A DNA stretch of 64,000 nucleotides. Origin: an uncultured Bacteroidales bacterium. Lineage in GTDB: Bacteria; Bacteroidota; Bacteroidia; Bacteroidales; Paludibacteraceae. The notes under the pieces were generated by a model, which was not told where the DNA came from, made no database searches, and saw only the letters and a list, made by a program, of their open reading frames with translations. The translations under genes and the position numbers were made by a program. Below, in pieces: positions 9,688 to 62,428 of the stretch (the first letter of the stretch is position 1; every line of letters begins with the position of its first letter). Where the stretch lies: contig CAMNCW010000026.1 of NCBI GenBank assembly GCA_946534715.1, positions 5,611 to 69,610 of the forward strand, given 5' to 3'.

Positions 9688-9921
9688 ATGGGTAAGTATC
9701 GCGTCATAGTATTCCTTTTTGCCCTCGGGCTCATCAGTTGCGCTTCTAATCAAGTGCCGCTTGATGATGCGTATTATTGGCCGGACAAATCCGCTGTCTC
9801 AACCAATACGCAAACAACGACTACAACGCAAACAACGACAACAACGGCAACTACGCAAAAGCCCCTTGTCGAGTTTCTTACTGTCAAAGACACTACCGTA
9901 ACAGTCAAAATTAAGCGATGA
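9688..9921 (+). CDS. Small Thr/Gln-rich lipoprotein
   Basis: Lipobox LGLISC, followed by TQTTTTTQTTTTTATTQ encoded by an 18-nt repeat. Confidence 0.5.
   Translation: MGKYRVIVFLFALGLISCASNQVPLDDAYYWPDKSAVSTNTQTTTTTQTTTTTATTQKPLVEFLTVKDTTVTVKIKR
9808..9861 (+). repeat. 18-nt tandem repeat x3 (acgcaaacaacgacwaca)
   Basis: Encodes TQTTTT units. The core caaacaacg resembles the decamer array at 21474-21511. Confidence 0.7.
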
Positions 9922-11249
9922 AAAACCTCCGATACATATTGTCCTTTGTCCTTTGTACATTGTCCCTTTGTACTTTTGCACAGGATTATGCCCGTATCTC
10001 CGAGCGCTCTATCATGGGAACAGCGCGCTATGTGGGTATGGGAGGTGCGATGTCTGCTATCGGTGGCGACCCGTCTTCTATTCATGACAACCCTGCCGGA
10101 TTAGGACTTTACCGGCGTACGGAGATGATGATCACGTTTGACGGCATGTTCGATAAGACTACTCAACCGGGTTATCAGGATGTCGGCGAAAGGCGACTCT
10201 TCATGGCGCCACAAGCATCGCTGATCTTCTCCATGCCTTCTTATAGCGCGGACGATGAGGGAGTTCAGTTCAATAATCTCTCTTTGTCTTACCGCCGCCT
10301 CAATACATTCAATCGTCTGTGGCTCGGTTCGGGCGAGAAGGACTTGTCCCTCGGAGCGTTGTTAACCACAGCGGATGTCAAATGGGATATACCCTTCTGC
10401 TCCGAGAAGATAAATGCAACCAATCTTCTCGACTTAGCGGAGAGCGGTCACACCAGTGAGTTCGCGATTGATTGGGCAATTAACATCTCTAATAGATGGT
10501 TTGTGGGTTTCGGAGTGCATATTCAGTCTTATTTCTTGGCTTCGGACGGAGATTTTCAGGAGACTTTTTCTTCCAAGAATGCGTTCGGAAGGAATATGTA
10601 TAACCTCAACCAAACGAAACTGACCCTTTCGGGAACAGGATGTAACCTCACAGCAGGGCTCATCTATCGTCCGGCTTCTTGGATCCGTATGGGATTTGGT
10701 ATTCAGACGCCTACATTGGGATCGCTCAATACTTATACCTCCGGCACACTCGTTGCCTTGACGGATTCGGTTCGGTATTCCTATGCACCTAATGCGTATA
10801 GCCGTGATTCGAAGTTCCATATGCCTCTGCATTTGTCTTCTTCGGTAGCCTTTCAAGTGGGCGCGTATGGCATGCTTGCATTCCAATATGATTATTTCAA
10901 GCAACTGCAAAACGATGCCGTTCATTCCTTGCGAACCGGTCTTGAGGTCATTCCTGTCATGGGATTGTATGTGAATGCCGGATATGCGTTTGAGAGCACT
11001 TTCAAGAAGAATACGAACCCTGTTCCGATGGATCCGACTTTTGAGCGTCAAGATACCTATTTCGTGACCCCGCAGTGGTCGCAATATGTCTCTGCCGCAA
11101 TCGGCTATCGAGGAACAATTATGATGGTTCAAGCAGCATACCAATATCGCTGGCAAAGAACTAATCTATATGCCCACGAGAATGCCTCGCCATATGATAT
11201 GAATGCCACTACCCACCGCATCATTTTTACCATAGGCTGGCATAGATAA
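9918..11249 (+). CDS. Outer-membrane beta-barrel protein (FadL/PorV-like N-terminal motif)
   Basis: Signal peptide plus RYVGMGGAMSAIGGDPSSIHDNPAGLG, a motif seen in FadL/PorV-type barrels. 443 aa. Confidence 0.5.
   Translation: MKNLRYILSFVLCTLSLCTFAQDYARISERSIMGTARYVGMGGAMSAIGGDPSSIHDNPAGLGLYRRTEMMITFDGMFDKTTQPGYQDVGERRLFMAPQASLIFSMPSYSADDEGVQFNNLSLSYRRLNTFNRLWLGSGEKDLSLGALLTTADVKWDIPFCSEKINATNLLDLAESGHTSEFAIDWAINISNRWFVGFGVHIQSYFLASDGDFQETFSSKNAFGRNMYNLNQTKLTLSGTGCNLTAGLIYRPASWIRMGFGIQTPTLGSLNTYTSGTLVALTDSVRYSYAPNAYSRDSKFHMPLHLSSSVAFQVGAYGMLAFQYDYFKQLQNDAVHSLRTGLEVIPVMGLYVNAGYAFESTFKKNTNPVPMDPTFERQDTYFVTPQWSQYVSAAIGYRGTIMMVQAAYQYRWQRTNLYAHENASPYDMNATTHRIIFTIGWHR
9939..9980. repeat. Heptamer array TTGTNCN x6 (42 nt) encoding the signal-peptide h-region
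   Basis: ttgtcct ttgtcct ttgtaca ttgtccc tttgtac ttttgca gives SFVLCTLSLCTFA. This is the reverse complement of the GTACAAR arrays that encode the C-terminal tails at 32321, 34104 and 37401. Confidence 0.8.
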
Positions 11250-11268
11250 TGGATAATTGATAATTGAG
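11245..11268. repeat. Heptamer array GATAATK x3.4
   Basis: gataatg gataatt gataatt gag, overlapping the stop codon at 11247-11249. Confidence 0.7.
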
Positions 11269-17477: not shown

Positions 17478-17510
17478 AATTGTAAATTGTAAATTGTGCA
17501 TTGTAAATTA
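17478..17510. repeat. Heptamer array AATTGTA x4.7
   Basis: aattgta aattgta aattgtg cattgta aatta fills the whole gap between the peptidase stop (17508-17510) and the thioesterase start (17476). Confidence 0.9.
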
Positions 17511-25965: not shown

Positions 25966-28900
25966 ATGAAAAACAAATTCTTTGTACATCGTACATTGTT
26001 CCATCGTACATTTATTGTACTTTGTACTTTGTCCCTTTGTTCCTTCCTGTCGGCGCAGACGACGGTCACAGGAAAGGTCATCGACGGTGCGAATAACGAA
26101 TCCGCGATAGGGGCAACTGTGATCGTAGCCGGCACGCAGGTCGGCACGGTGACTGATTTCGACGGGCATTTCTCCATTGAAGTGCCGGACGGTAAGTTTA
26201 TCCTGCAATTCTCCATGGTGGGGTACAAGACGCAGGTGGTGAATATCCGCGGCAAGAGCCATGTGGAGGTCACTATGCAGGAAGATACGCAGGTGATGGA
26301 GGAAGTGGTGGTCGTTGGCTACGGAGTGATGAAAAAACGCGACCTGTCGGGCTCTGTCAGCCAGATCAAGAGCGAAGATATCATGTCGGGCGGCACGCTG
26401 AATACGGCGCAGAGCCTGGAGGGCAAGATCGCGGGTGTTGATGTCAAATCGTCCGACGGAGCCCCGGGTAGCGGCGTGAGCATCACCGTCCGCGGTGCTA
26501 ACTCGTTCACCACCAGTTCGCAACCGCTCTATATAGTCGATGGTGTACCGTTCGGCACAGACCCCAACGGCGTTCCTTCCTCCGGTGCAAACGACGGACA
26601 GAACACGTCGCAGAACCCCTTGTCGATGATCAACCCCAATGATATCGAGAAGATAGAGGTGCTCAAGGATGCTTCGGCAACGGCTATCTACGGTTCGCGC
26701 GGTGCGAATGGCGTGGTGATCATCACGACACGCAAAGGGCAGGAAGGCAGACCCCGTGTGGAGCTGAATGTCAAAGGCGGCATGCAGCAGATCGCCAACC
26801 GCGTGCAGATGCTGGATGCGTACCACTATGCGCTCTATCAGAACGAAGCGGCGGCGAACAGCCGTACATACGAAGGTGGCACGCAGCGTGACCCTTATCG
26901 GGGCGAATGGGATTATCCTTACGTCGGCTCGGGGTATGTGTATAACCAAGGTAAGTATAACCCTTCTCCCGAAGATTTCCTGAACCCCGGTCTGCGCACG
27001 GACAAGTACGGCAACGTGGACGAAGTGGCAGGCACCGATTGGCAACGCGAGATATACCAATTGGGTTATTCGCAGGAGTATAACGCGTCAGTCTCCGGCG
27101 GCACGGAGAAGGGCTATTACGCTTTCTCCGGCTCCTATGCCGACCAGCGGGGTATCATCAAGAACACGGGATACAAGCGTTATGGTCTTTCCATTAACAC
27201 GGCTTGGCATATCACCAAATGGCTCGAGATCGGTACGAGCCAGCATTTCACAAACGCTACGACAGATTTTCAGCGGACGAATTCCGAGAACACGGGTATC
27301 ATCCGTTCGGCGCTCATTTTCCCGCCTACCTACGGTCCGCACCAGCAGACGGAGCAGTTGGACGAACTGAACTGGCTGGCTGCTAATCCGCTCAATTATG
27401 TCAACGGCGCGAAAGACGAACTGAAACAAATCTCGTGGTTCTCGTCCTCGTTTGTGGAGTTTACGATTCAGCCCTGGCTCAAGTTACGCCAGAATCTCGG
27501 TTTAGGCTATAACGACGGTCATCGTGCAACGTATTACGACCGTCATACGCAGGAAGGCAAATCGCCTTTTAACGGCAAAGCGGGTAGGGCATCGAATATA
27601 TGGAAGAGCCTCACCGCCGAGACGCTGCTGACCTTTGACCATAAGTTCAATGCGAATCATAGCATCAATGCCGTGCTCGGTGTGACCTTTGAACGTGGTA
27701 TAGGCGAGTCCGAATCAATGACCGCTACTAATTTTCCGAACGACCTGACGAAGGATGCGAACATGGCGTTAGCACTCGACAAGGGAGTGTTACGCAGTTC
27801 GCAGACTCAACAGTCATTAGAGTCTTATTTAGCGCGTATGAACTACACGCTCATGGGACGCTATATCTTCACCGCCAGCGCGCGTGTCGATGGCTCGTCC
27901 TCGTTTGCCCCCAAACATAAATGGGCGCCGTTCTTCTCCGGTGCGTTTGCATGGCGCATGATCGACGAGAATTGGATGCAGGACCAGCAGGTGCTCTCCA
28001 ACTGGAAATGGCGTGTCTCATTCGGCGAGACGGGAAACCAAGCGATCGGCGCCTACCGTACGCTCACGGTGCTCGATGCGGCGAACTACCCCTATGCCGG
28101 CACGTTAGAATCCGGCGCGGCGATGATCGATTGGAGAGGACCGACGAATCCCGACCTTCGATGGGAGACTACCGATCAGGCGGATGCGGGGCTGGACATC
28201 GGTTTTGCCAATAACCGCGTCAACATCACGTTGGATTATTATTGGAAGAAAACACGTGACTTGCTCCAGAACGTGACGATCCCTTCCTCAACGGGTTTCA
28301 GCCAGATGATGATCAACTCCGGTTTTGTCATTAACCAGGGTTTCGAACTGACCCTCAATGCCGTAGCAATCGACATGGCGGATTGGAAATGGCAGCTGGA
28401 TGCCAATTTCTCTTTAAACCGCAACCGCATCGGCGGACTCAAAGGCGATCAGTACGCCACCGCCCTATGGTCGAAAGCGGATCAGGTCTTCCTGCAACGC
28501 AACGGATGTCCTATCGGTACGCTCTACGGCTATCGGGAAGAGGGCATTGATCCCGCTACCGGCGAGATCGTCTATTCCGACCTCAACGGCGACGGTTCTG
28601 TCACCGAAGCCGACCGCACGATCATCGGCAATACGAACCCCGATTTCACGTATTCGCTCACCTCGCGCCTGTCATGGAAAGGGCTTTCGCTCAACTTTAT
28701 GCTCCAAGGCTCGCACGGCAACGATATATTCAATTATAACCTCACGGATATCACGATGTCCAATATCGGTAATATTACACAACAAGCATACGACCACCGT
28801 TGGACGGCGGCTAACCCCGACGGCGCACTATGGCCGAAACCCACAGCGGGATATAACAGGACATGGCTCGTTTCGAACCGATATGTGGAAGATGGTTCGT

Positions 28901-29130
28901 TCCTCAAAATCAAATATATCACCCTCAGTTACGATTGGAATAACCCTGCCAAATGGCTGCAGAAGATCAATTTCAATTTCACCGTCAATAACGTCTATAC
29001 TTTCACGCGTTATTCATGGTTTGACCCCGATGTGAATGCCGCCGGCACGAATCCTTCCTGCCCGGGCGTGGATAGTTATTCCTATCCCGCTGCACGGACG
29101 TATAACTTAGGTATCAACTTTGTATTCTAA
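25966..29130 (+). CDS. susC: SusC/RagA-family TonB-dependent outer-membrane transporter
   Basis: 1054 aa. CarboxypepD_reg-like TVTGKVIDGANNESAIGATVIV, plug domain and C-terminal ...YNLGINFVF. Confidence 0.95.
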   Translation: MKNKFFVHRTLFHRTFIVLCTLSLCSFLSAQTTVTGKVIDGANNESAIGATVIVAGTQVGTVTDFDGHFSIEVPDGKFILQFSMVGYKTQVVNIRGKSHVEVTMQEDTQVMEEVVVVGYGVMKKRDLSGSVSQIKSEDIMSGGTLNTAQSLEGKIAGVDVKSSDGAPGSGVSITVRGANSFTTSSQPLYIVDGVPFGTDPNGVPSSGANDGQNTSQNPLSMINPNDIEKIEVLKDASATAIYGSRGANGVVIITTRKGQEGRPRVELNVKGGMQQIANRVQMLDAYHYALYQNEAAANSRTYEGGTQRDPYRGEWDYPYVGSGYVYNQGKYNPSPEDFLNPGLRTDKYGNVDEVAGTDWQREIYQLGYSQEYNASVSGGTEKGYYAFSGSYADQRGIIKNTGYKRYGLSINTAWHITKWLEIGTSQHFTNATTDFQRTNSENTGIIRSALIFPPTYGPHQQTEQLDELNWLAANPLNYVNGAKDELKQISWFSSSFVEFTIQPWLKLRQNLGLGYNDGHRATYYDRHTQEGKSPFNGKAGRASNIWKSLTAETLLTFDHKFNANHSINAVLGVTFERGIGESESMTATNFPNDLTKDANMALALDKGVLRSSQTQQSLESYLARMNYTLMGRYIFTASARVDGSSSFAPKHKWAPFFSGAFAWRMIDENWMQDQQVLSNWKWRVSFGETGNQAIGAYRTLTVLDAANYPYAGTLESGAAMIDWRGPTNPDLRWETTDQADAGLDIGFANNRVNITLDYYWKKTRDLLQNVTIPSSTGFSQMMINSGFVINQGFELTLNAVAIDMADWKWQLDANFSLNRNRIGGLKGDQYATALWSKADQVFLQRNGCPIGTLYGYREEGIDPATGEIVYSDLNGDGSVTEADRTIIGNTNPDFTYSLTSRLSWKGLSLNFMLQGSHGNDIFNYNLTDITMSNIGNITQQAYDHRWTAANPDGALWPKPTAGYNRTWLVSNRYVEDGSFLKIKYITLSYDWNNPAKWLQKINFNFTVNNVYTFTRYSWFDPDVNAAGTNPSCPGVDSYSYPAARTYNLGINFVF
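25981..26047. repeat. Imperfect heptamer array (TTGTAC/TTGTCC type, ~9 units) encoding the SusC signal peptide
   Basis: tttgtac atcgtac attgttc ... ttgtact ttgtact ttgtccc tttgttc gives FVHRTLFHRTFIVLCTLSLCSF. Shares LCTLSLC with ORF 9918. Confidence 0.75.
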
Positions 29131-31018: not shown

Positions 31019-32371
31019 ATGAAAAAACTTATCTCCATCTTTTATCTCGTCGGCATAACTGTCAGTACGATGACTGCCGCTGAGAAAGTGGTCTGGACAG
31101 GTAACGAACCTATCTCTTGGAACACGGAGGTCTATGCCGGTACGCAGTTTGAAACACCTTCCGGCATCTTTGCAGGGCTGCAAAAAGACCATATTATCCG
31201 TGTTACCGTAGTGCCCGGCATGGATAAACCGCAGTATGTCATGACCTACAAAGCCGGTGATTCCTGGTCGTGGACGGATCTCGCTATCACGATCAAAGAC
31301 AGTATCCTGTCTTATACAGTAGAGGCTGATGCTATCGCCACGGAGATAGCCGACCGCGGTCTCATCTTCCGCGGACAGGGCTATAACATCACCCAAATAA
31401 CGGTTGATGATCTGCTGCCTGACTCGGTGCCGTCTGTTGATCCGCAGCCCGGAGACACCACCATCGTCCCCGTAGATCCTTCACTCCCCGGCACGTATGA
31501 GAAGATCCTGTGGCAGGGCGACTCGGCTATCTCGTGGAACGCGGAGGCGTATGCCGGAGGTGAGTTCGAGACCGCAGCAGACCTCTTCGCCGGCCTTCAA
31601 CTCAACGATACGATCCGCGTCTATACCGCCGAAGCAATTGAGGGCGCGCAATATAACCTCACCTATAAAGCCGGTGCTTCATGGGAGTGGGCGGCGCTGA
31701 ATACCACAGTAGAGAACGGCGTGATCCGTTATGTGGTGGAGTCGTCCGCTATTGCGCAAGAGATTGCCGAACGAGGCATCATCGTCCGCGGACAGGGCTA
31801 TCACATGACCTGTATCACCGTGACCGCGCATCCGCAGGACACGATCACGCCTGTTGACCCGCAACCTACCGACAGCATCGATCTCACCGGACTCGTGGAG
31901 ACCGTCCTTTGGACAGGCAATGCCGCCATCTCCTGGAATAGCGAAGAATATGCCGGAGACAAACTCGACACCCGTTCGATCAGCGAGACCCTATTTGCCG
32001 GGCTCCAAGAGAACGACATCATCTGCGTCACTTATGCCGAAGCGGCAGCAGACGCGCAGTTCGGTCTTCAGTACAAAGCCGGAGATAACTGGTCGTGGAC
32101 CAATCTCAACTATCAACTCTCAACTATCAACTCTCAACTTCTCTACCGTGTCGCTTCCGACGAGATGGCAATGCTCATCGCCGACCGCGGATTAGTGATC
32201 ACCGGTATCAAATACCACGCTACCAAAATCAGCCTCTTCACTCCCGAAACAGAAGGGGTAGAGCATCTACAAAAGGACAATGCACCGGCTACCAAGTTCA
32301 TTGAAGACGGTCAACTCTATATCAAGTACAAAGGAACAAAATACAATGTACAAGGAGCAAAGCTCCGTTAA
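31019..32371 (+). CDS. Secreted surface protein with three ~110-aa tandem modules and a conserved C-terminal tail
   Basis: Modules at about aa 21-128, 160-268 and 295-410 (W.G....ISWN.E.YAG..FET....FAGLQ..D.I.V...RGQGY..T.ITV). Tail FIEDGQLYIKYKGTKYNVQGAKLR. Confidence 0.7.
   Translation: MKKLISIFYLVGITVSTMTAAEKVVWTGNEPISWNTEVYAGTQFETPSGIFAGLQKDHIIRVTVVPGMDKPQYVMTYKAGDSWSWTDLAITIKDSILSYTVEADAIATEIADRGLIFRGQGYNITQITVDDLLPDSVPSVDPQPGDTTIVPVDPSLPGTYEKILWQGDSAISWNAEAYAGGEFETAADLFAGLQLNDTIRVYTAEAIEGAQYNLTYKAGASWEWAALNTTVENGVIRYVVESSAIAQEIAERGIIVRGQGYHMTCITVTAHPQDTITPVDPQPTDSIDLTGLVETVLWTGNAAISWNSEEYAGDKLDTRSISETLFAGLQENDIICVTYAEAAADAQFGLQYKAGDNWSWTNLNYQLSTINSQLLYRVASDEMAMLIADRGLVITGIKYHATKISLFTPETEGVEHLQKDNAPATKFIEDGQLYIKYKGTKYNVQGAKLR
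32104..32138 (+). repeat. Heptamer array TMTCAAC x5 (perfect 14-nt period) inside module 3
   Basis: tctcaac tatcaac tctcaac tatcaac tctcaac, translated NYQLSTINSQL. It replaces the segment seen in modules 1 and 2. Confidence 0.9.
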
Positions 32372-32397
32372 ACTGTTAAATTGTTAAATTTATAATA
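32321..32397 (+). repeat. NNCAARG heptamers x6 (C-terminal tail) followed by TGTTAAAT octamers
   Basis: atcaagt acaaagg aacaaaa tacaatg tacaagg agcaaag (IKYKGTKYNVQGAK), then gttaaac tgttaaat tgttaaat. The same layout repeats at 34104-34180. Confidence 0.85.
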
Positions 32398-32399
32398 TT

Positions 32400-34154
32400 A
32401 TGAAAAAAATCTTTCTATTTTTAAGTGTAGTGCTGGTATCCCTGGCAATGCAGGCAACTGTGCAAAAAGCAGATTGGAACTTTAGCGGAATGACCGAGTG
32501 GGACTCAGGAACAGCGTCTTTTAATACAGAAACAGGAGTCGTTACGGCAAATCAATTTCGTGGCGTAGGTAACTGGGGATGGTTGGAAAAAGGAGACTAC
32601 GACACACTCGTGGTTGAAGTAGCAGATCATGATTATCCTGTATTAGTGAAGGTAAAAACCATCAATGATGGTGAAGCCGATCAAACAGAGAATTATGTAG
32701 ATTTTCAGAAGGAAATATCTGCCAAGCAAAATTGCCTTGTTCTTGATTTGACTTCATCAAAAGATATTATAAAGTATATTGAGTTGGATAACTGGTCAAA
32801 GCATGATGGTGCAACTTTTACGATTAAGAGTATCTATGCGTTAAAGACTTCCGGAATTAAAATCACACGTCCTCTTTGGAACGGGGAAAATGCCTTTGGT
32901 AATTGGGAACATAGCATTTCTGTTGATCCGTTTGCTCGCGTCTATGAATATGATGAGATGGTGATAAAATATACGAAAGGAAGTGATCCGCAGTGCCAGA
33001 TTAAAATCAGAGGAACCAACGCGTTTTTGGATTTTGTAGGCGACTATGTGGATGTAAGCGGAGAGACGCAAGCTTCCTTCCTTTTAAGTGCGGCGGATGT
33101 TGCTGCAATTAAAAGTAACGGTTTCTACTTAAATGGTAAAAACATGACCATCACAGATGTTCTAATAGTAAGCCACAGAACTTTGGCAAGTGAGGAAAAG
33201 GTAGTTGGAGGATGGAATAATCACTGTGAGATTGATGCAGCAGGCATGTTGGCTGATTTGCAGATAGGCAATAATATCTGCGTGTGCGTTACGAACATTG
33301 CTTCGGGGGAATATCAGCGTGTCAGCCTTTACAGCGGTTGGAGTAATTCGGATCTTTTGGTTGGTTGTGAGCATTTCTTTGGAGCAGAGACGGCATCAGG
33401 AGATAGTCCACTTATCGTACGTTTCCCCGTTACTGGCAGTATGAAACAACAGTTAGGATCTCACAATTTGCTTGTTCGTGGCTGTTATTTCACTATGACA
33501 GATGTGTACGTCGAAGAAGGTACTCCTGTAGCCGAAACAGGTGTAAATGGATATCTTACAGTCTCTACTGCCGGCATGGCTACATTTATGCTACCTTTTA
33601 ATGTGCCCTCTTTGCCGTCCGGTGTTCAGGCTTACGAACTGACCAATGACGGTTCTGAGGAGATTGTGGCTACTGAAGTTAAGACGCTCGAAGCAGACAA
33701 ACCCGTGCTTATCGTCGCTGCCAAAGGCGAATATAAGTTCATTAGCGAAGAAGGTGCATCGGCTGATATCTCTGGGAAAACAGGTACATATACCAACGGC
33801 GCGCTCGTTGGAACTTACCATACGATCAACCCATTAGCGCAGACCACTGATGACAAATACAACTATCTGCTCCAAAACGGAAAGGACGGCGTGGCTTTCT
33901 ATCAAGTGTTGGACGATGAATGCTCTTTGGGCGCTTACCGCGCATACCTCAGTTGTGGCTATAATGCCAGCACGTCAAAACCAGGCATGCCTCCGCGGAA
34001 GTCCATGCGTATTGTTTTCCGCACCGATGAAACAACAGGCCTTGTGGACGTACAAGGGTACAATGTACAAGGTACCAAGTTCATCAAGGACGGACAACTC
34101 TATATCAAGTACAAAGGGACAAAGTACAATGTACAAGGGCAGAAAGTGCGTTAA
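32400..34154 (+). CDS. Secreted multi-module surface protein with the same C-terminal tail
   Basis: 584 aa. Type I signal peptide. Modules end in ..TIKSIYAL / ..MTITDVLIV / ..FTMTDVYV. Tail FIKDGQLYIKYKGTKYNVQGQKVR. Confidence 0.7.
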   Translation: MKKIFLFLSVVLVSLAMQATVQKADWNFSGMTEWDSGTASFNTETGVVTANQFRGVGNWGWLEKGDYDTLVVEVADHDYPVLVKVKTINDGEADQTENYVDFQKEISAKQNCLVLDLTSSKDIIKYIELDNWSKHDGATFTIKSIYALKTSGIKITRPLWNGENAFGNWEHSISVDPFARVYEYDEMVIKYTKGSDPQCQIKIRGTNAFLDFVGDYVDVSGETQASFLLSAADVAAIKSNGFYLNGKNMTITDVLIVSHRTLASEEKVVGGWNNHCEIDAAGMLADLQIGNNICVCVTNIASGEYQRVSLYSGWSNSDLLVGCEHFFGAETASGDSPLIVRFPVTGSMKQQLGSHNLLVRGCYFTMTDVYVEEGTPVAETGVNGYLTVSTAGMATFMLPFNVPSLPSGVQAYELTNDGSEEIVATEVKTLEADKPVLIVAAKGEYKFISEEGASADISGKTGTYTNGALVGTYHTINPLAQTTDDKYNYLLQNGKDGVAFYQVLDDECSLGAYRAYLSCGYNASTSKPGMPPRKSMRIVFRTDETTGLVDVQGYNVQGTKFIKDGQLYIKYKGTKYNVQGQKVR

Positions 34155-34180
34155 AGTGTTAAATTGTTAAATCGTTAATA
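34050..34180 (+). repeat. GTACAAN heptamer arrays (two blocks) plus TGTTAAAT octamers
   Basis: gtacaag ggtacaa tgtacaa ggtacca (34050-34077). atcaagt acaaagg gacaaag tacaatg tacaagg (34104-34145). gttaaag tgttaaat tgttaaat cgttaata (34150-34180). Confidence 0.85.
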
Positions 34181-34182: not shown

Positions 34183-34308
34183 ATGAAAAAGAACTATATT
34201 GAGCCTAAGACGGAAATAATCTCCGTAGAAATGACGAACACATTGTGTGCATCGGGAAAGCCCGTTACTTTCGGTAGCGGAAAAGCCAACGGAGGAGGAG
34301 GACTATAA
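34183..34308 (+). CDS. Candidate 41-aa small ORF (MKKNYIEPKTEIISVEMTNTLCASGKPVTFGSGKANGGGGL)
   Basis: ATG sits in the same context (octamer array then tattATGaaaaa) as the start of ORF 32400. Gly-rich end. Not in the ORF track. No homology can be claimed. Confidence 0.25.
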   Translation: MKKNYIEPKTEIISVEMTNTLCASGKPVTFGSGKANGGGGL

Positions 34309-34338
34309 TTTACAATTTACAATTCACAATTTACAATG
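34307..34338. repeat. Heptamer array AATTYAC x4 ending in the GH36 ATG
   Basis: aatttac aatttac aattcac aatttac aATG. Confidence 0.9.
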
Positions 34339-36507
34339 AAACGACTATTCAAAATAAGCCTTGCCCTGTGTGTCTGCCTGATAGTGGGCACACCGATGCG
34401 GGCAGTAGAGATGCTGCCTACTTTCGGCGACATCGATCATATTCATCTGCCGGCGCTCATTGTGCAACATGCCGACGGTGATCTGAGTCTGCAACTGCGA
34501 GCACAGGACACCACCTATATCGACAACGCGCAATACAAAGAGACGGTGATTAAGACCAAAGATCTGGTGCAGCCGTTCTATGTGACGATCCATGTGCGGC
34601 AATGGAAATCGGTAGCGATTACCGAGACATGGTATGAGATCCTGCACACCGAGAAAAAGCCCGTGCGGTTAGAGCGTTATGACAGCGGGTATCTGCCTAT
34701 CGAGGGCGATGCGCCGTACCTGTTGCACCTACACGGTAACTGGGCGGCGGAGGGAGTGCCGACTATCGAACCTCTGACGCGCGGTGTGAAGACGATCCGT
34801 AACTCCGACGGCGCACGCAATGCGCATCTGGATGCACCCCAAGTGATGATCTCGCTGGACGGTGTGCCGCAAGAGAACTACGGCCGTGTGTTAGGCGCTG
34901 CGCTTTGCTGGAGCGGAAATTTCGAGATACGCGTGGCGGCTACCGACGAGAAAGGTTTTCATTTCTATGCCGGCATTGATCCCATGGCATCCGAGTACGT
35001 ATTAGCGCCCAAACAAGTGTTCACCACGCCGCATTTGGCTTATACGTATTCGAACGAGGGTATGGGCGGTGTGTCGCGTGCGTTCCATCAATGGGCGCGC
35101 ACCTGCGGCATGATCCATAACGGCAATGCTACGCGGGCTATTCTGCTTAACTCGTGGGAAGGCATCTATTTCGACATCACGGAGGAGAAGATCCTTGCCA
35201 TGATGAACGATATAGCGGCTTTCGGAGGTGAGCTCTTCGTGATGGACGACGGCTGGTTTGGCGGTAAGTACCAACGCAACAGCGATGATGCGGCGTTAGG
35301 CGATTGGACGGTCGATACACGCAAGCTGCCGAACGGACTCGAAGCTCTCACCAAAGCAGCCAAAGAGCGGCATATTCAGTTCGGTATATGGATCGAGCCC
35401 GAATCGACCAACACCCTTTCGGAACTCTATGAGAAGCATCCTAATTGGGTGCTCCAAGAGCGCGGAAGGGAACTCAAACTCGGTCGCGGAGGTACACAAG
35501 TAGTGCTCGATATGACGAACCCGGAGGTGCAGGATTTCGTGTTCTCCATCGTGGATAACCTCCTTACCAAGCACCCCGAAATAGCCTATATCAAATGGGA
35601 TGCGAACGCCTCGATTCAGAACTACGGTTCGCCGTACTTGCAGGCTCTTTCCGAGAACAAGTCTCTCCCCTTCAGGGGAGTAGGAGGGGTCCGCTCGAAC
35701 CTCTACGTGGACTACCATCTGGGGCTGGTCAAGACGCTCGAACGCATCCGCGCCAAGTACCCGGACGTGGTGATACAGAACTGCGCCTCGGGCGGCGGCC
35801 GTGCCAACTACGGGCTTATGCCGTATTTCGACGAGTTCTGGGTGTCCGATAACAACGATGCGCTGCAACGCGTCTATATCCAGTGGGGCACGTCGTATTT
35901 CTTCCCCTCAAACGCCATGGCGCAGCATATAGGCGGAAGTCCGTACCTCATGACCGGCCGCACAACGCCGATCAAGTTCCGCTGCGATGTAGCTATGTCG
36001 GGACGGCTCGGTATGGAACTGCAACCGGCGCACATGACTGACGAGGAACGCGCACAGTGTACCGTCGCTTTTCGCGACTACAAAGCCCTGCGCTCCCTCA
36101 TCCAACTCGGTAACCTCTACCGCTTGGTATCGCCGTACAATGACAAATATCAAATGTCAAATGTCAAATTGCCCGAAACGCAAAGCGTTGCGGCATTGAT
36201 GTACGTCAATGATACCAAAGACCAAGCCGTGCTCTTTGCGTACGGACTCTCCTCTTTCATGAAGCAGGCGAGCCGCCGTATCCGTCTTGCAGGGCTTGAT
36301 CCGAACCGTACCTATACGCTCCATGAGAAGAATATCTCCGTTAAGTACCACCATGACCGCGGTTCATGGGGCGAAGGCGAACCCTGCGAACTCGACGGCA
36401 AGTCTTTTACCGGCGAATACCTCATGTCCGTTGGTCTGGATATCCCTCTCTCTACCGAATACAACAGGGATTATCCCTCACGTATATTTTATTTAATTGG
36501 TAATTGA
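34336..36507 (+). CDS. GH36 alpha-galactosidase
   Basis: 723 aa. FVMDDGWFG, IKWDANA and NCASGGGRANYG motifs typical of GH36. Confidence 0.9.
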   Translation: MKRLFKISLALCVCLIVGTPMRAVEMLPTFGDIDHIHLPALIVQHADGDLSLQLRAQDTTYIDNAQYKETVIKTKDLVQPFYVTIHVRQWKSVAITETWYEILHTEKKPVRLERYDSGYLPIEGDAPYLLHLHGNWAAEGVPTIEPLTRGVKTIRNSDGARNAHLDAPQVMISLDGVPQENYGRVLGAALCWSGNFEIRVAATDEKGFHFYAGIDPMASEYVLAPKQVFTTPHLAYTYSNEGMGGVSRAFHQWARTCGMIHNGNATRAILLNSWEGIYFDITEEKILAMMNDIAAFGGELFVMDDGWFGGKYQRNSDDAALGDWTVDTRKLPNGLEALTKAAKERHIQFGIWIEPESTNTLSELYEKHPNWVLQERGRELKLGRGGTQVVLDMTNPEVQDFVFSIVDNLLTKHPEIAYIKWDANASIQNYGSPYLQALSENKSLPFRGVGGVRSNLYVDYHLGLVKTLERIRAKYPDVVIQNCASGGGRANYGLMPYFDEFWVSDNNDALQRVYIQWGTSYFFPSNAMAQHIGGSPYLMTGRTTPIKFRCDVAMSGRLGMELQPAHMTDEERAQCTVAFRDYKALRSLIQLGNLYRLVSPYNDKYQMSNVKLPETQSVAALMYVNDTKDQAVLFAYGLSSFMKQASRRIRLAGLDPNRTYTLHEKNISVKYHHDRGSWGEGEPCELDGKSFTGEYLMSVGLDIPLSTEYNRDYPSRIFYLIGN
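35663..35691 (+). repeat. G/C hairpin mini-element in frame in GH36 (translated SLPFRGVGGV)
   Basis: ctctcccc-ttca-ggggag taggaggggtc. Confidence 0.8.
36138..36171 (+). repeat. Heptamer array CAAATNT x5 in frame in GH36 (NDKYQMSNVK)
   Basis: caatga caaatat caaatgt caaatgt caaattg. The 20-mer aatgacaaatatcaaatgtc recurs (reverse strand) in aroQ at 62178-62219. Confidence 0.9.
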
Positions 36508-36573
36508 TAATTGTGATCTCGTGATCTCGTGATCTCGAAATTTTTAATTTATAATTTATAATTTTTAATTTAA
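36494..36573. repeat. Composite spacer: TAATTGN x3, GTGATCTC x3 (perfect), AATTTWT x5
   Basis: Fills almost the whole GH36 to next-gene spacer and includes the GH36 stop (36505-36507). The octamer recurs at 46419-46458. Confidence 0.9.
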
Positions 36574-36581: not shown

Positions 36582-37451
36582 ATGAAAAAGTTTTATTCAT
36601 TATTCATGGCTTTATGCCTTTCCGCATTGATGCTCAATGCCAAGACTGTAGAAACAACCCTTTGGGAAGGGGAGTACACCAATGGCGTAGAAATCAACTC
36701 TGCCACAATCGCTACCTTCAAAGCCGGAGACATCCTCCGTGTCTATGTAACAGTGCCGGAAAATGGCGCTAACTTCAAGATCGTCTATAAAGGCGCACCA
36801 GATTGGTCTGAGACCACGATCCCTTCCATTAACGACCAGTGGCCGTGGGTGAATGGCGGCGAGACCTACAAGGAGTTTGCTCTTACGGAGGAAGACCTCA
36901 CCGCTTTTGCCGGCAAGAACATCTACGTCTATAAAGGCGAGTACTCCACTATCAGCAAAGTGTCGCTTATCTCCGAAGAGAAAGACATGAAGGAGACTAC
37001 CCTTTGGGAAGGGGAATCTACCGGCGACATCGAACTCAATGCGGCTACCGTAGCTACCTTCAAAGCCAATGATATCCTCCGCGTCTATGTAGCGGCATCG
37101 GCTGAGGGCGGAAACTTCAAACTGGTCTATAAAGGTGAGCCCGATTGGAAAGAGAAAGCTATTCCTTCTGTCAACAGCAGTTGGCCGTGGATCAATGGCG
37201 GTGAAGACCGCTTTGAGGTCACTTTCACAGCTGCGGATATAGCGGCATTGGCATCCATGAACATCTATCTCGCTAACGGTGGCCGTTCGATCGTCAAAGT
37301 GTCGCTCCTTACCGAGGACCAAGGCGGTTCTACAGGCATTGACAATACATCCGCCAATTTTGGCGGATCGCAGAAGATCCTTCGTGACGGTCAACTCTAT
37401 ATCCTGTACAACGGCACCAAGTACAATGTACACGGTCAGGTAATTAAATGA
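36582..37451 (+). CDS. Secreted surface protein with two ~108-aa tandem modules and the conserved tail
   Basis: TTLWEGE....E(I/L)N.AT(I/V)ATFKA.DILRVYV....G.NFK(I/L)VYKG.PDW appears twice. Tail ILRDGQLYILYNGTKYNVHGQVIK. Confidence 0.7.
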   Translation: MKKFYSLFMALCLSALMLNAKTVETTLWEGEYTNGVEINSATIATFKAGDILRVYVTVPENGANFKIVYKGAPDWSETTIPSINDQWPWVNGGETYKEFALTEEDLTAFAGKNIYVYKGEYSTISKVSLISEEKDMKETTLWEGESTGDIELNAATVATFKANDILRVYVAASAEGGNFKLVYKGEPDWKEKAIPSVNSSWPWINGGEDRFEVTFTAADIAALASMNIYLANGGRSIVKVSLLTEDQGGSTGIDNTSANFGGSQKILRDGQLYILYNGTKYNVHGQVIK

Positions 37452-37460: not shown

Positions 37461-37495
37461 TAAATCTCAAATGTCAAATCTCAAATCTCAAATAT
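37461..37495 (+). repeat. Heptamer array CAAATNT x5 containing the GH26 start codon
   Basis: taaatct caaATGt caaatct caaatct caaatat gives MSNLKSQIL. Confidence 0.9.
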
Positions 37496-38541
37496 TGCTC
37501 TTGTTGGCATGTGCGTTCTGCGCGTGCCAACAGAGCAATCCTGTTCTCTTCGGTCATCAGGACGATGTGGTCTATGGCTCTCAATGGCAGCGTCTGGCGG
37601 ATAGTACCTATGCGGACACGCGTTCCTGCGTCTATGACGTCACCGGTCAATGGCCCGACCTCATCGGTTTTGACATCGGCGGTATTGAACTGTGCCACAC
37701 CCGTAACCTCGACTCCGTACCTTTCTCACGCATGTTGGAGGAGTGTCAGCGGCAGTTCGCCCGAGGCGGAAAAGTAACCCTCTCATGGCACGCCCGCAAT
37801 CCTCTTACCGGCGGTAACTCATGGGACACGACACCCTGCCTCGCTGAGATCATTGACCCCGACACCGATGTCCATGACACCATGCAGGTGTGGATCGAAC
37901 GCGCTGCAGCTTTCATTGCGCAGGTAGCAGCACTCCAAACGCAGCCGGAACAACTCATCGTCCGCCTTTGGCATGAGCAATCCGGCAACTGGTTTTGGTG
38001 GGGCAGGGATGCCGGTTCGGCGAAGGACTATATTGCCCTATGGCAATGGACGCGCAACTACATGAATATATTGGGTATCAATGCGCTATACGCATATAGC
38101 CCGGACAAGCTCACCCTCTATGAATCCACGCCCGAGGGTGCTTTCCGTGAGACCGCAGAATGGTACCCCGGAGACGAATACGTTGATATCATCGGTACCG
38201 ACTGCTATCATTTCGGCGGGGCAGAAGGTACGGAGGACTATCTCCGTCGTGCGCACAGGCAACTCAACGCCGCGGCGCAATTGGCGAAGGAGCATCATAA
38301 ACGCCTCGCCTTCACTGAGACCGGCTGTGAGTCTATCCGTTGCCCGCATTGGTACACAGAGGTCTTATTGCCCCTCCTGCGCGAGTACCCGGCAATCGAA
38401 TACGTCCTCGTCTGGCGAAACGCGTGGGATATACCGCATCATTACTATACCCCCGCACCGAATCATCCCGAGGCAGAAGATTTCAAATCTTTCATCCAAC
38501 AAATCTCAAATCTCAAATGTCAAATTTCAAATCTAAAATAG
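37471..38541 (+). CDS. GH26 beta-mannanase (second copy), lipoprotein
   Basis: Lipobox LLLLACAFCAC. GH26 signature VRLWHEQSGNWFWWG. The C-terminus QQISNLKCQISNLK is encoded by a heptamer array. Confidence 0.85.
   Translation: MSNLKSQILLLLACAFCACQQSNPVLFGHQDDVVYGSQWQRLADSTYADTRSCVYDVTGQWPDLIGFDIGGIELCHTRNLDSVPFSRMLEECQRQFARGGKVTLSWHARNPLTGGNSWDTTPCLAEIIDPDTDVHDTMQVWIERAAAFIAQVAALQTQPEQLIVRLWHEQSGNWFWWGRDAGSAKDYIALWQWTRNYMNILGINALYAYSPDKLTLYESTPEGAFRETAEWYPGDEYVDIIGTDCYHFGGAEGTEDYLRRAHRQLNAAAQLAKEHHKRLAFTETGCESIRCPHWYTEVLLPLLREYPAIEYVLVWRNAWDIPHHYYTPAPNHPEAEDFKSFIQQISNLKCQISNLK
38500..38541 (+). repeat. Heptamer array CAAATNT x6 (42 nt) containing the GH26 stop and the GH130 start
   Basis: caaatct caaatct caaATGt caaattt caaatct aaaaTAG. 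Confidence 0.9.
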
Positions 38542-39731
38542 CTACTCTCCGTGCCGCGCACGAAGCGCTTCTCTCCCGTCCTAACGAACCCGTTGAAGGC
38601 GGCAACGGTATCTATACCAAATACCGTTATCCTATCCTCACGGCGGAGCACACGCCGCTGGAATGGCGGTATGACTTCAACGAGCAGGACAACCCCTACT
38701 TGATGCAGCGCATCATGATGAACGCGGTGCTCAATGCTGGAGCGATCCTCTTTGAGGGCAAATATACCGTCGTGGCGCGCGTCGAAGGGGCTGACCGCAA
38801 GTCTTTCTTTGCGGTCGCACAGTCCGATAACGGCATCGACAACTGGCGTTTCTGGCCTGAGCCTATCACCATGCCCGATGGCAATAACGCACCGGCGACG
38901 AACGTCTATGATATGCGTCTGACGCAGCATGAGGACGGCTATATATATGGTATCTTCTGTGTGGAACGTCATGACGAGACGAAGCCGTTTGACACCTCTG
39001 CCGCTACCGCTGCTGCCGGCATTGCCCGCACTAAAGACCTCGTTCATTGGGAACGGCTCGACGATCTCAAATCGCTCTGCCAGCAGCGCAACGTCGTCCT
39101 TCACCCGGAGTTCGTGGAAGGGCAGTATGCGCTCTATACACGCCCGCAGGACGGATTCATCGAGACCGGCAAAGGCGGTGGAATAGGGTGGACTCTCACG
39201 CCCGACATCACGCATGCCGAAGTACGTAACGAGCGTATCATCTTCGGGCGGCAGTACCACACCGTCTATGAGGTCAAGAACGGAGAAGGACCCGCTCCTA
39301 TCAAGACCGCCAAAGGGTGGTTGCACCTTGCCCACGGCGTGCGTGCTACCGCGTCCGGACTCCGTTATGTGCTCTATATGTACATGACCGCCCTCGACGA
39401 CCCTACACGTGTCATTGCCCGTCCCGGAGGATGGTTCTTAGTGCCGGAAGGCTACGAGTATATCGGCGATGTGATGAACGTCGCCTTCTCCAACGGCTGG
39501 ATCGTGGAGGAGAATAAATCGTACATCGTAAATCGTCCAATCGTAAATGATAAAGACACCCGCCGTGTCTTTATCTATTACGCTTCGGCGGACACCCGTC
39601 TGCACGTAGCTACCACCACCGTGGATCAGCTCCTCGATTACTGTCTTAACACGCCCGTAGATGGTCTTAATACCTCCGCCTCTGTGGACAAAATCAAAGC
39701 CCTCGTCGCAAAAAATCGTCAAATCCGATAA
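38517..39731 (+). CDS. GH130 beta-1,4-mannosylglucose/mannooligosaccharide phosphorylase
   Basis: From MSNFKSKIATLRAAHEALLSRPNEPVEGGNGIYTKYRYPILTAEH..VARVEGADRKSFFAVAQSDNGIDNWRFW, the pattern of Bacteroides 4-O-beta-D-mannosyl-D-glucose phosphorylases. Overlaps the GH26 gene by 25 nt. Confidence 0.85.
   Translation: MSNFKSKIATLRAAHEALLSRPNEPVEGGNGIYTKYRYPILTAEHTPLEWRYDFNEQDNPYLMQRIMMNAVLNAGAILFEGKYTVVARVEGADRKSFFAVAQSDNGIDNWRFWPEPITMPDGNNAPATNVYDMRLTQHEDGYIYGIFCVERHDETKPFDTSAATAAAGIARTKDLVHWERLDDLKSLCQQRNVVLHPEFVEGQYALYTRPQDGFIETGKGGGIGWTLTPDITHAEVRNERIIFGRQYHTVYEVKNGEGPAPIKTAKGWLHLAHGVRATASGLRYVLYMYMTALDDPTRVIARPGGWFLVPEGYEYIGDVMNVAFSNGWIVEENKSYIVNRPIVNDKDTRRVFIYYASADTRLHVATTTVDQLLDYCLNTPVDGLNTSASVDKIKALVAKNRQIR
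39516..39551 (+). repeat. Heptamer array AAATCGT x5 in frame in GH130 (KSYIVNRPIVND)
   Basis: aaatcgt acatcgt aaatcgt ccaatcgt aaatgat. Confidence 0.85.
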
Positions 39732-41137: not shown

Positions 41138-42264
41138 CGTATGATCCATTGAAAGTATCTGCGCAACAGATACTTGAAACCAATATCTTAGCCTATTGGC
41201 TCAAACTCCGCGACCACGAAAGAGGAGGTTTCTACGGACGCGTGGACGGAGACGAACAGTGTCACCCTGATGCTCCTCGTGGAGCGGTACTCAACGCCCG
41301 CATCCTCTGGGCGTTCTCCGCGGCATACCGCGTCCTCGGTAAAAAGGAATACCTTGATGCCGCTAAAGAGGCGAAACGCTACATAGAGGCCTGTTTTATA
41401 GACCCCGATTATGGCGGCGTCTATTGGTCCGTTACGGCGGAAGGCAAACCTTTAGATACCCATAAACAGTTCTACGCGCAGGCATTTATGCTCTATGCTT
41501 TCTCCGAATATATACGTGCTACAGGAGATACGCAGGCGATGCCTGTTGCGGATGCTTTGTTCCGGCTGATAGAGGAGTACGGCAGGGATCGCGAGTATTT
41601 AGGGTATATCGAAGCCGCTTCGCGTAACTGGCAACCGCTGTCTGACATGCGCCTCTCCGATAAGGATGAGAACACCATCAAATCGCAGAACACTAACCTG
41701 CATATTCTCGAGGCATATACCAATTATTTCCGCATCCGTCCTTTGTCCGAACTGAGGGGCGCACTGAGCCTGCTCATTGACACCTTTCAGCACTATATCA
41801 TGCTCCCCTCCGGACATCTCGGACTCTTTTTCGATGAACAATGGCGTCCTACCAATGACCATTTCTCCGCCGGACATGATATCGAGTGCTCGTGGCTGCT
41901 GAACGAAGCGGCGGATGTTCTCGGAATCAATTGTACCGCTACTGTCCTGCGTCTCGCCGAAGCTGCCAAACAAGGCATACACCCCGATGGCTCTATTGGT
42001 GAACAGACCTGGTGGGAACAAGCCGAAGCCGTTGTCGGATTCTTCAACCTCGGGCAAATAACCAATGACCAATCACCAATGGAATTGGCGCTCAGGACAT
42101 ATTCCTATATCCAAGATGTTCTCATTGACCGCACCCACGGCGAGTGGTTTTGGTCGGTCATGCCGGACGGCACGCCTGACCGCACGCAAGACAAAGCCGG
42201 GTTCTGGAAATGTCCCTACCATAACTCCCGCATGTGCCTCGAGATTATGGAACGCCTGAAATAA
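41134..42264 (+). CDS. AGE-superfamily 2-epimerase (cellobiose/mannobiose 2-epimerase)
   Basis: 376 aa (alpha/alpha)6 pattern (..KQFYAQAFMLYAFSEY.., ..NLHILEAYTNY.., ..GHDIECSWLL..). Genomic context matches the GH130 mannan pathway. Confidence 0.8.
   Translation: MTYDPLKVSAQQILETNILAYWLKLRDHERGGFYGRVDGDEQCHPDAPRGAVLNARILWAFSAAYRVLGKKEYLDAAKEAKRYIEACFIDPDYGGVYWSVTAEGKPLDTHKQFYAQAFMLYAFSEYIRATGDTQAMPVADALFRLIEEYGRDREYLGYIEAASRNWQPLSDMRLSDKDENTIKSQNTNLHILEAYTNYFRIRPLSELRGALSLLIDTFQHYIMLPSGHLGLFFDEQWRPTNDHFSAGHDIECSWLLNEAADVLGINCTATVLRLAEAAKQGIHPDGSIGEQTWWEQAEAVVGFFNLGQITNDQSPMELALRTYSYIQDVLIDRTHGEWFWSVMPDGTPDRTQDKAGFWKCPYHNSRMCLEIMERLK
42055..42082 (+). repeat. Heptamer array CCAATNN x4 in frame in the epimerase (QITNDQSPM)
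   Basis: caaataa ccaatga ccaatca ccaatgg. Same unit and near-identical peptide as susD 29675-29695 (ITNNQSP). Confidence 0.8.
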
Positions 42265-42290
42265 TTTTAAATTTATAATTTTTAATTTCT
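42261..42290. repeat. A/T heptamer array (WWTAATT type) filling the epimerase-manA spacer
   Basis: ataatttt aaattta taatttt taatttc t ATG. Confidence 0.7.
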
Positions 42291-44377: not shown

Positions 44378-44382
44378 GGTTA

Positions 44383-44410
44383 TTGATAATTGACAATTGA
44401 TAATTGATGA
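44383..44410. repeat. Heptamer array TTGAYAA x4 (identical 28-mer to 1007-1034)
   Basis: ttgataa ttgacaa ttgataa ttgatga fills the 33-nt spacer between two minus-strand genes. Confidence 0.9.
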
Positions 44411-46396: not shown

Positions 46397-46418
46397 ATTG
46401 TTGTTGTTTTGTTATTTT

Positions 46419-46458
46419 CGTGATCTCGTGATCTCGTGATCTCGTCATTTCGTGATTA
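46419..46458. repeat. Octamer array CGTGATCT x5 (three perfect units)
   Basis: cgtgatct cgtgatct cgtgatct cgtcattt cgtgatta. Same unit as 36513-36536. Overlaps the prfC stop. Confidence 0.9.
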
Positions 46459-62393: not shown

Positions 62394-62428
62394 ATGTGTG
62401 ATGTGTTATGTTTGATGTGTTCTATTTT
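62394..62428. repeat. Heptamer array ATGTKTK x5 filling the rho-aroQ spacer
   Basis: atgtgtg atgtgtt atgtttg atgtgtt ctatttt. Confidence 0.85.

Follow-up and report, generated by a model that had tools for sequence, protein, structure and literature searches.

A heptad-built DNA element dispersed in rumen Bacteroidales, its orientation-dependent place within genes, and a separate, older C-terminal tail

A 64,000-nt stretch of DNA from an uncultured Bacteroidales bacterium of the Paludibacteraceae (assembly GCA_946534715.1, contig CAMNCW010000026.1, forward-strand positions 5,611 to 69,610; this whole stretch is the window, and positions are counted from its first letter) carries short arrays of GTACAA-like units that fall in the C-terminal tails of secreted proteins when read in one direction and, as TTGTAC-like units, in the hydrophobic cores (h-regions) of signal peptides when read in the other. 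The question raised by this locus is whether one DNA repeat underlies both kinds of protein segment and, if so, whether the apparently conserved tail is anything more than a translation of that repeat. The original prediction, made from the letters alone, proposed a single repeat and offered two readings of it, either that the tail is a by-product of the DNA or that the repeat was co-opted because both of its translations are useful. The arrays lie at all five places that had been named and have the translations that had been given for them, and they are copies of one discrete, dispersed, sharp-edged DNA element. The tail is a separate, older protein motif that is independent of the element. 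We consider the best explanation, with a probability of roughly 0.6, to be a dispersed element within a large population of arrays of heptads (7-base units), with selection on the encoded peptides sorting its orientations.

One dispersed element beneath tails and signal peptides

The element is about 34 nt long, with the consensus AAt-GTACAAa-GGGACAAt-GTACAAw-GTACAAA-GG, and consists of four heptads. In a logo over 140 unique contexts, among the matches listed, conservation extends from -3 to +30 and both flanks are at background information, and when 521-nt windows were compared by BLAST, unrelated loci had 34–48 nt in common, frequently 100% identical. In the window the 21-mer GTACAAAGGGACAATGTACAA matched five times at up to three mismatches (9953-, 26022-, 32326+, 34050+, 34109+) against an expectation of 0.00 from 100 dinucleotide-preserving shuffles, so that forward and reverse arrays are indeed one DNA sequence and a repeat at the DNA level underlies both the tail residues and the h-regions. 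At up to six mismatches, a 28-mer found eight copies in the window, including 25982–26009 in SusC and 37406–37433 in the tail of open reading frame (ORF) 36582 (Table 1), a density of about one copy per 8 kb, and 31 copies across about 300 kb made up of the window and 14 related loci from metagenome-assembled genomes (MAGs), where it recurs within unrelated genes in both orientations. A scan of metagenomes with GTACAANGGGACAANGTACAA matched at least 120 stretches. Clusters of the GTACAA and TTGTAC hexamers in the window were confined to the predicted places, and a TTGTAC-like cluster at 17478–17509 belongs to another heptad family, AATTGTA. The arrays differ internally in the number and order of their heptads.

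Whichever of the six frames it is read in, the consensus is free of stop codons, and each of its six translations (NVQRDNVQCTK, MYKGTMYNVQR, CTKGQCTMYK, PLYIVHCPFVH, LCTLYIVPLYI and FVHCTLSLCT) was found in open frames. This bears on the possibility that there is no DNA repeat as such, and that the similarity arises from conserved peptide motifs and codon choice. Such an origin would fit the conservation of the tail and of the linker VQGDKVQSTK as protein in many proteins, and the YNVQG part of the tail does lie within the natural variation of the older motif. It is contradicted, however, by multi-frame, two-strand use, the same 21–34-mer being read in three sense and three antisense frames, in 5′ leaders and in multi-copy arrays in short frames. 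The codons of the arrays are also non-preferred in the window (GTA 0.18, ACA 0.15, GGG 0.07, TAC 0.39), orthologous tails have the same motif without an array, and homology between ORF31019 and ORF32400 extends beyond the stop codon. Even among tail-bearing proteins picked by protein sequence alone, the linker NVQ[GS]DKVQ[SC]TK is encoded as AAT GTA CAA.GT GAC AA. GTA CAA.GT ACA AAG, and one such locus, L139, encodes IMYKGTMYNVQG with the exact element. Non-preferred codons together with uniform linker codons in a protein-picked set argue for a DNA-level rather than a codon-level cause, and an origin in peptides and codon choice seems to us scarcely credible.

Two other candidates were rejected. 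RNA structure was ruled out as an explanation by the weakness of the predicted hairpin (minimum free energy -4.2 to -5.0 kcal/mol, z -1.3 to -2.3) and by the finding that no Rfam family matches the element, and a restriction-site or HIP1-like genome-wide bias was ruled out because the GTAC tetramer occurs at expectation (ratio 1.00). The element was absent from the 2.9 million viral contigs scanned and, given this absence, looks like a host-lineage signature. Its sequence strings had no match in the literature searched, and a literature search for heptamer repeats in rumen Bacteroidales gave only unrelated feeding studies.

Orientation, frame and position within genes

Position within genes was tabulated for 197 copies with up to four mismatches to the 28-mer, among the matches listed, in ORFs of at least 150 aa. 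Antisense copies were found in the first 120 nt of the ORF in 22 of 28 cases and at the C-terminus in none, whereas the 84 sense copies comprised 7 N-terminal, 27 C-terminal and 50 internal ones (Fisher's exact test, N-terminal versus other positions by orientation, p = 3e-12). The association of orientation with position that had been drawn from the window thus holds beyond it. Most sense copies (73) were in frame 0, with 21 C-terminal, 6 N-terminal and 46 internal, and encode the hydrophilic linker NVQ[RG]D[NK]VQ[SC]TK; nine were in frame 2, six of them C-terminal tails (MYKGT[MK]YNVQG), and two were in frame 1. About 20 of the frame-0 copies end 69–93 nt ahead of the stop codon, directly upstream of a GQL-type tail (described below), and the commonest forward coding use is the linker just before the tail rather than the tail. 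Several of the "internal" antisense copies are actually the N-termini of miscalled genes.

The peptides of the N-terminal antisense copies are ordinary signal peptides of the signal peptidase I and II types (SPI/SPII), for example MRKLLTFVLCTLSLCTFA followed across the cleavage site by QTTVTG, and ...VLCTLSLCTLFMASC. In the window, the antisense copy in ORF9918 reads as LSFVLCTLSLCTF, which includes FVLCTLSLCTF and forms the h-region before an A|Q cleavage context, and the two copies in SusC read as FVHRTLFHRTF in the n-region and IVLCTLSLCSF in the h-region. The A|Q context agrees with the Q-rule for Bacteroidetes as set out in a passage of PMC5837995.

The same division was seen among period-7 arrays in general. 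Inside ORFs, N-terminal arrays have a T-rich sense strand and a median Kyte-Doolittle hydropathy of +1.29, whereas arrays in the interior (median -0.93) or at the C-terminus (median -0.78) are rich in A, and only 3% and 0% of them, respectively, are hydrophobic (Mann-Whitney p = 3e-13). T at the second codon position specifies hydrophobic residues and A hydrophilic ones. Complementary strands are therefore opposite in hydropathy, which accounts for the pattern in the period-7 arrays.

A conserved C-terminal tail older than the element

The tail has the motif K.LRDGQL.I.R.G..YN..GQ..K, or in profile form K.[LI][RE][DN]G[QV]L.I.....G..YN..G..., and ends a few residues from the stop codon. It is present in all three of the window ORFs concerned (32290–32371, 34073–34154 and 37380–37451), with the invariant K, G, I, Y and G retained. 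The original prediction suspected that the conserved tail was a by-product of the repeat, and this did not hold up. A 30-column profile of the tail (A2) matched 8,446 protein clusters at E <= 0.001, counted as representatives at 50% identity. In MAGs of rumen Bacteroidales and Paludibacteraceae, relatives at 31–46% identity, 14 orthologous loci have the tail written in ordinary codons (for example CTC CGC AAC GGC GTG GAG TAC AAT GCC AAC GGT CAA), at the same length and without a GTACAA array, and an element-like tail, [YH][KN]GT.YNVQG, occurs in only 18 of 149 representatives. Among the 323 homologues of ORF32400 the C-termini follow K[VFI][LF][RE][ND]G[QV]L[FYI]I[LIK][RH][ND]G[VI][EK]YN[AVI][NQ]GQ..K, and YIKYKGTKYNVQG, which the tail arrays of both ORF31019 and ORF32400 encode, is common to just the two closest of them, P0004 and P0007. 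The exact product of ORF32400 had no match on record, and looking up clusters yielded neither names nor taxa.

In the best 150 of the 8,446 clusters the match nearly always runs to the last residue, in proteins of 45–1,691 aa. The carriers are secreted, to judge from full-length representatives that begin MRK... and from signal peptides assessed by eye. Ten long carriers include adhesins with MBG and Listeria-Bacteroides repeats, BspA-type leucine-rich repeat proteins, a beta-helix protein and an M4 protease, and in all ten the tail falls outside any Pfam model. Products of polysaccharide utilisation loci are carriers too. Searches of Pfam and NCBIfam, including TIGR04183 and TIGR04131, gave no match to the tail (full proteins at E <= 1, the last 46–48 residues at E <= 10), and the tail profile against PDB sequences gave matches at chance level (E about 1). 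A homologue search with 46 residues of the tail turned up no candidate with a shared word.

Like the C-terminal domain (CTD) of the secretion system of type IX (T9SS), this tail is C-terminal and is found on secreted or surface proteins of Bacteroidota with N-terminal signal peptides. Unlike it, the tail has no match to TIGR04183 (type A) or TIGR04131 (type B) even at E <= 10, which answers the proposal that it might be scored as such a domain, and is conserved over only about 25–30 residues. In the AlphaFold2 model of ORF32400, residues 457–557 have a predicted local distance difference test score (pLDDT) below 50 and are followed by three short strands (559–576, pLDDT 55–65), a low-confidence model in which the tail would be a short beta-meander after a disordered stretch, as against the beta-sandwich of about 80 (70–100) residues of the T9SS CTD. 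The original prediction had named a known tail family extending beyond the array as an observation that would count against it; an array-independent family does exist, but it is uncurated and is not the T9SS CTD. The tail may serve for sorting or anchoring, as a signal not described before and different from that domain.

By a hand count, the frame-2 element is already matched at about 79% identity by a tail of the type found in L004, ATC ATG AAC AAC GGT ATC AAG TAT AAT GTG CAA GGC (IMNNGIKYNVQG), and every change from that tail to the window tail moves toward the element consensus, synonymous changes included (TAT>TAC, GTG>GTA, GG.>GGG). The irregular GGG of the element, one TAC and its terminal GG align with G19 (nearly invariant), Y22 and G26 (invariant) of the tail. 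Either the tail captured the element or the tail helped to shape it; both may be considered. One sublineage alone, including the three window ORFs, has its last (second) tail hairpin in element DNA, in frame 2, unchanged in length and with G, Y and G, the invariant residues, retained. ORF31019 and ORF32400 share a homologous cassette of about 150 nt, which extends beyond the stop codon. Its parts are a linker copy, KFI.DGQLYI, a tail copy, the stop codon and a GTTAAATT array, and the spacing from linker copy to tail copy is 59 nt both in the window and in L087. The homologous cassette and the equal spacing point to duplication or conversion between tails at the level of the cassette. The linker VQGYNVQGTK of ORF32400 corresponds in homologues to (D/N)VQGD(N/K)VQ(S/C)TK.

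Table 1. Copies of the element, the genes that carry them and adjoining 8-nt arrays in the window
Feature	Position	Strand	Remarks
Element, antisense to ORF9918 (28-mer 9946-9973), with extra GGACAA units	9939..9976	-	2 mismatches
Two element copies, antisense to SusC	25982..26042	-	25982-26009 (4 mismatches), 26015-26042 (3 mismatches)
Decayed element, sense frame 0	~32267-32296	+	Linker HLQKDNAPATK before ORF31019 tail; aligns with ORF32400 linker copy
Element, sense frame 2 (28-mer 32326-32353)	32323..32356	+	KYKGTKYNVQG in ORF31019 tail; 3 mismatches to 28-nt consensus
Element, sense frame 0	34050..34077	+	ORF32400 linker VQGYNVQGTK; LVDVQGYNVQGTK
Element, sense frame 2 (28-mer 34109-34136)	34106..34139	+	KYKGTKYNVQG in ORF32400 tail; 1 mismatch to 28-nt consensus
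Degenerate element-like segment, sense frame 2	37406..37433	+	YNGTKYNVHG in ORF36582 tail; 5 mismatches; YILYNGTKYNVHG
ORF9918	9918..11249	+	443 aa; putative outer-membrane protein; signal peptide bears antisense element
SusC/RagA-type TonB-dependent transporter, mannan utilisation locus	25966..29130	+	Signal peptide bears antisense element
ORF31019	31019..32371	+	450 aa; signal peptide; three ~140-aa internal repeats; GQL-type C-terminal tail
ORF32400	32400..34154	+	584 aa; signal peptide; beta-sandwich body; GQL-type tail; 323 homologues
ORF36582	36582..37451	+	289 aa; signal peptide; two internal repeats; GQL-type tail
GTTAAATT 8-nt array	32367..32390	+	Spans ORF31019 stop codon and beyond; in ~150-nt cassette common with ORF32400
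GTTAAATT 8-nt array	34150..34178	+	3′ of ORF32400 stop codon

A mannan utilisation locus hosts the arrays; its genes are, in order, an AraC regulator, GH26, SusC (25966), SusD (29180), ORF31019, ORF32400, GH36 (34336), ORF36582, GH26 (37471), GH130, an MFS transporter, an epimerase and mannose-6-phosphate isomerase. The N-termini of ORF31019, ORF32400 and ORF36582 are MKKLISIFYLVGITVSTMTAA, MKKIFLFLSVVLVSLAMQA and MKKFYSLFMALCLSALMLNA, signal peptides without a lipoprotein cysteine. The body of ORF32400 is modelled as beta-sandwich domains whose weak likeness, at low TM-scores, to carbohydrate-binding modules and to the Bacteroides surface glycan-binding protein SGBP-B is suggestive. A 14-nt/7-nt array (TCTCAACTATCAAC) lies at 32104–32139 inside ORF31019, about 230 nt ahead of its stop codon. 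The N-terminus of ORF9918 has a weak PorV/PorQ-like match (23 bits against a cut-off of 90), which is the sole T9SS-related trace in the window.

Heptad arrays, their turnover and the origin of the element

The element belongs to a much wider class of repeats. By Tandem Repeats Finder the window has 30 arrays of period 7, as compared with 1.1 in Markov-1 shuffles (for period 8, 10 as compared with 1.15), with rows at the element sites 9939–9976, 25984–26032, 34050–34075 and 34107–34136, and most of the period-7 arrays are intergenic or touch a start or stop codon. Across 1.15 Mb, made up of the window and fetched loci and enriched in the GTACAA family through its collection, there were 596 period-7 arrays in 154 unit families, as against 45 of period 6.

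Arrays at orthologous sites turn over. In GH130 orthologues a surface loop between NGWI and VFIYY is empty in L004, L006, L007 and L009, but holds the GTACAA element in L001 (16216–16243) and L005, an AAATCGT/ATCGTAC array in the window (39515–39548, in ORF 38517–39731) and L002, and an AGCCAAC array in L011 (about 18,240). The signal peptides of 11 SusC orthologues include six with GTACAA, one with TTCGCCN (L005) and one with CTTTTAC (L011), the rest being without an evident array. The linker ahead of the tail is built of GTACAA units in the window and L004, AATGGTN in L003, TCAGCAA in L006, L009 and L014, GTCGAAA in L138 (about 4095–4130) and NNNTCAG in L137 (about 2270–2300). Linkers recur accordingly among protein representatives P0121–P0269, with VQGDKVQSTK in 38 of 149 by a strict count and many more decayed, SIQPSAISSQK, in NNNTCAG units, in 26 of 149, and ESQKSKVESQK in GTCGAAA units. 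In one pair, L016 and L132, there is a single mismatch in the 100 nt upstream, and array content differs by other than a simple multiple of 7 nt.

Several further repeats were seen. Arrays at gene boundaries in the window, some of period 8, include 1007–1032, 5856–5897, 11245–11267, 17478–17509, 34307–34337, 36494–36572, 42261–42288, 44382–44412, 62181–62218 and 62394–62420, and the spacer 36494–36572 consists wholly of three different arrays, TAATTGA, GTGATCTC and AATTTAT. Both ends of the GH26 gene ORF37471 lie in AAATCTC/CAAATCT heptads (37462–37493 and 38500–38539), giving MSNLKSQI... and ...ISNLKCQISNLK before the stop, and its C-terminal array overlaps the start of the GH130 gene. Arrays of the 8-nt unit TCGTGATC, both on the + strand, occupy two intergenic spacers, 36513–36537 between + strand genes and 46418–46456 between - strand genes, and are therefore opposite relative to transcription. 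An RNase E/G homologue (14128–16182) has an 18-nt/90-nt tandem repeat (11 and 2 copies) at 15728–15928 in its C-terminal part. There is also a second translated repeat, G/C-rich and inverted-repeat-like (of the type CCCTTCCC...GGGGAGGG), in linkers and enzyme loops, with examples at about 11,870–11,905 in L002 (PFPSGEGLGEAS), in the epimerase loop of L001 (SLSLGEGRGE) and in representatives with PSLQGRSGEASK; this, too, may be a dispersed element that is translated in frame.

In the explanation that we prefer, heptad arrays would arise, expand and be replaced through replication slippage and short-patch recombination between copies, at sites of low constraint, which would include the spacers between genes and 5′ leaders as well as signal peptides, surface loops, linkers between domains and the ends of proteins. 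The GTACAA composite would be tolerated inside genes either way round because it has no stop codon in six frames, and selection on the encoded peptide would then filter the copies. The A-rich strand would give hydrophilic peptides, with NVQRDNVQCTK tolerated as a linker or loop and MYKGTMYNVQG suited to the last tail hairpin, while the T-rich strand would give hydrophobic ones (FVHCTLSLCT, LCTLYIVPLY) tolerated only as N-terminal signal-peptide or membrane-type segments. The likeliest route for rewriting of the tail hairpin would be conversion from the nearby linker copy or from another tail cassette. The earlier suggestion that the repeat was co-opted because both translations are useful comes close to this, but is better put as selection filtering where each orientation persists.

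Several observations weigh against this explanation. Gene calls were crude, taking the first ATG and the longest ORF greedily, and translation of the copies is deduced from ORF continuity rather than from protein-level support. The metagenome sample was picked by the GGGACAA form of the element, which skews the frame counts toward that variant. For 85 of the 197 copies no assignment was possible, with none in a closed frame below 60 codons, so that the non-coding fraction is uncertain. A reading of these 85 as non-coding was rejected, all of them lying in open frames of at least 60 codons or at contig ends, and on inspection many proved to be signal peptides that start at a codon other than ATG, 5′ leaders placed a few codons before an ATG, or multi-copy arrays in short frames. 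There was no clean pair of filled and empty sites with exact boundaries, since the loops had diverged too. Certain copies are old, having been inherited vertically and not spread in recent times, as seen in an epimerase loop where identical variants occur in L001, L002, L004 and L007. Finally, slippage alone does not readily explain a composite so uniform (GGGACAA always second, terminal GG) in at least 140 contexts and several genomes, and this uniformity would also suit selection on the DNA itself.

The last point is the best argument for an alternative in which the 34-mer is a functional DNA or RNA signal, which might act in uptake, as a site of recombination or inversion, or as a site where a protein binds, with the translation being merely tolerated. 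The sharp edges and strong conservation of an irregular composite in unrelated contexts would be expected of such a signal, as would its occurrence in both orientations and the position of several copies a few codons before start codons, in apparent 5′ leaders. DNA uptake sequences too lie in coding regions in preferred frames, and Bacteroides shufflons have inverted repeats at the 5′ ends of susC genes. Nevertheless, many heptad families behave alike and interchange at the same sites, which suggests that a process of mutation is at work and not one particular signal; the ten window ORFs scanned include no recombinase gene; the hairpin is weak (-4 to -5 kcal/mol), with no Rfam match and a GTAC ratio of 1.00; and the element, at its density in the window, is sparser than classical uptake sequences. 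Its absence from viral contigs counts against a signal and also, as a host-lineage signature, for one. On balance we regard this alternative as unlikely. It is also quite doubtful that the arrays are an actively maintained system, either generated by dedicated machinery or serving as shared recombination adaptors, through which in both cases genes could acquire or swap ready-made signal peptides, linkers and C-terminal sorting cassettes, although if that were true, one six-frame-open DNA word would seed export and anchoring signals and protein ends would be born from repeats.

It could also be that the element is an active miniature mobile element, resembling a transposable element of the miniature inverted-repeat kind (MITE) or a Rickettsia palindromic element (RPE), that inserts in frame. 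Near-identical dispersed copies with sharp ends in unrelated genes, copies in conserved enzymes at loops whose length is less in other genomes, and a core of about 33–34 nt, near a multiple of three, would all be accounted for. This would not explain the want of terminal inverted repeats, target-site duplication and conserved flanks, a length of 34 nt, far below that of any MITE or RPE known, filled and empty sites that differ by more than the element, or the internal variation in how many heptads there are and in what order, as is typical of slippage, and we give it a slim chance. RPEs, reportedly described by Ogata and colleagues in 2000 as selfish repeats in frame within protein-coding genes, are similar in that copies with defined ends lie in ORFs of unrelated, otherwise conserved proteins, with the ORF intact, and would be read through as extra peptide segments in loops or ends. 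They differ in being about 100–150 bp long and palindromic and in adding a structured peptide, whereas the element is 34 nt, built of heptads, with a weak hairpin, and is read in several frames and in either orientation. DNA uptake sequences (USS/DUS), said by Findlay and Redfield in 2009 to co-evolve with proteomes, are likewise short iterated motifs in both orientations, many of them in genes and preferring peptide-tolerant frames and regions; the element is sparser and part of a broader set of tandem heptads that turn over, and its likeness to them is one of distribution.

Heptamer repeats are known elsewhere, cyanobacterial STRR heptamers being one case. Heptanucleotides are the most abundant class of long simple sequence repeats (LSSRs) in many prokaryotes (Mrazek, Guo & Shah 2007, as cited in a passage of PMC4679880), and slippage in a 7-nt register has been proposed for them (PMC4679880). 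In Beggiatoaceae, Cyanobacteria and a few Bacteroidetes, intergenic TAACTGA repeats are found immediately upstream of start codons, with copies in ORFs few and peripheral (PMC4679880), and the window units TAATTGA and AATTGAT are one base from this unit of Beggiatoaceae. The arrays described here resemble heptanucleotide LSSRs in having 7-nt units head to tail, in being strongly over-represented, in lying at gene boundaries or upstream of starts, in varying between relatives and in a coding use limited by the stop codons of the unit. Unlike LSSRs and TAACTGA repeats, they comprise many unit families, with one fixed, irregular four-unit composite dispersed as a 34-mer, and unlike TAACTGA that element is open in six frames, lies widely within coding sequence both ways round and follows a rule of orientation and position.

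What is new is the dispersal of a fixed four-heptad composite as a 34-mer in rumen Bacteroidales, its broad use within genes in both orientations, its strand-dependent sorting into signal peptides as opposed to linkers and tails, and the partial rewriting of a large family of C-terminal tails that lies outside the libraries scanned. That family, now exposed, is very large and spans adhesins, proteases and proteins of polysaccharide utilisation loci. Because an abundant uncultured rumen lineage has signal peptides, loops and linkers in fast-turning heptad arrays, heptad turnover affects gene calling, orthology and strain typing of these MAGs. More generally, the element offers a countable case of a DNA repeat of non-coding type supplying functional protein parts, in which reading one strand gives a hydrophobic export signal and reading the other a hydrophilic linker or hairpin, and in which the rule of orientation and position would be a direct read-out of selection on translated repeats.

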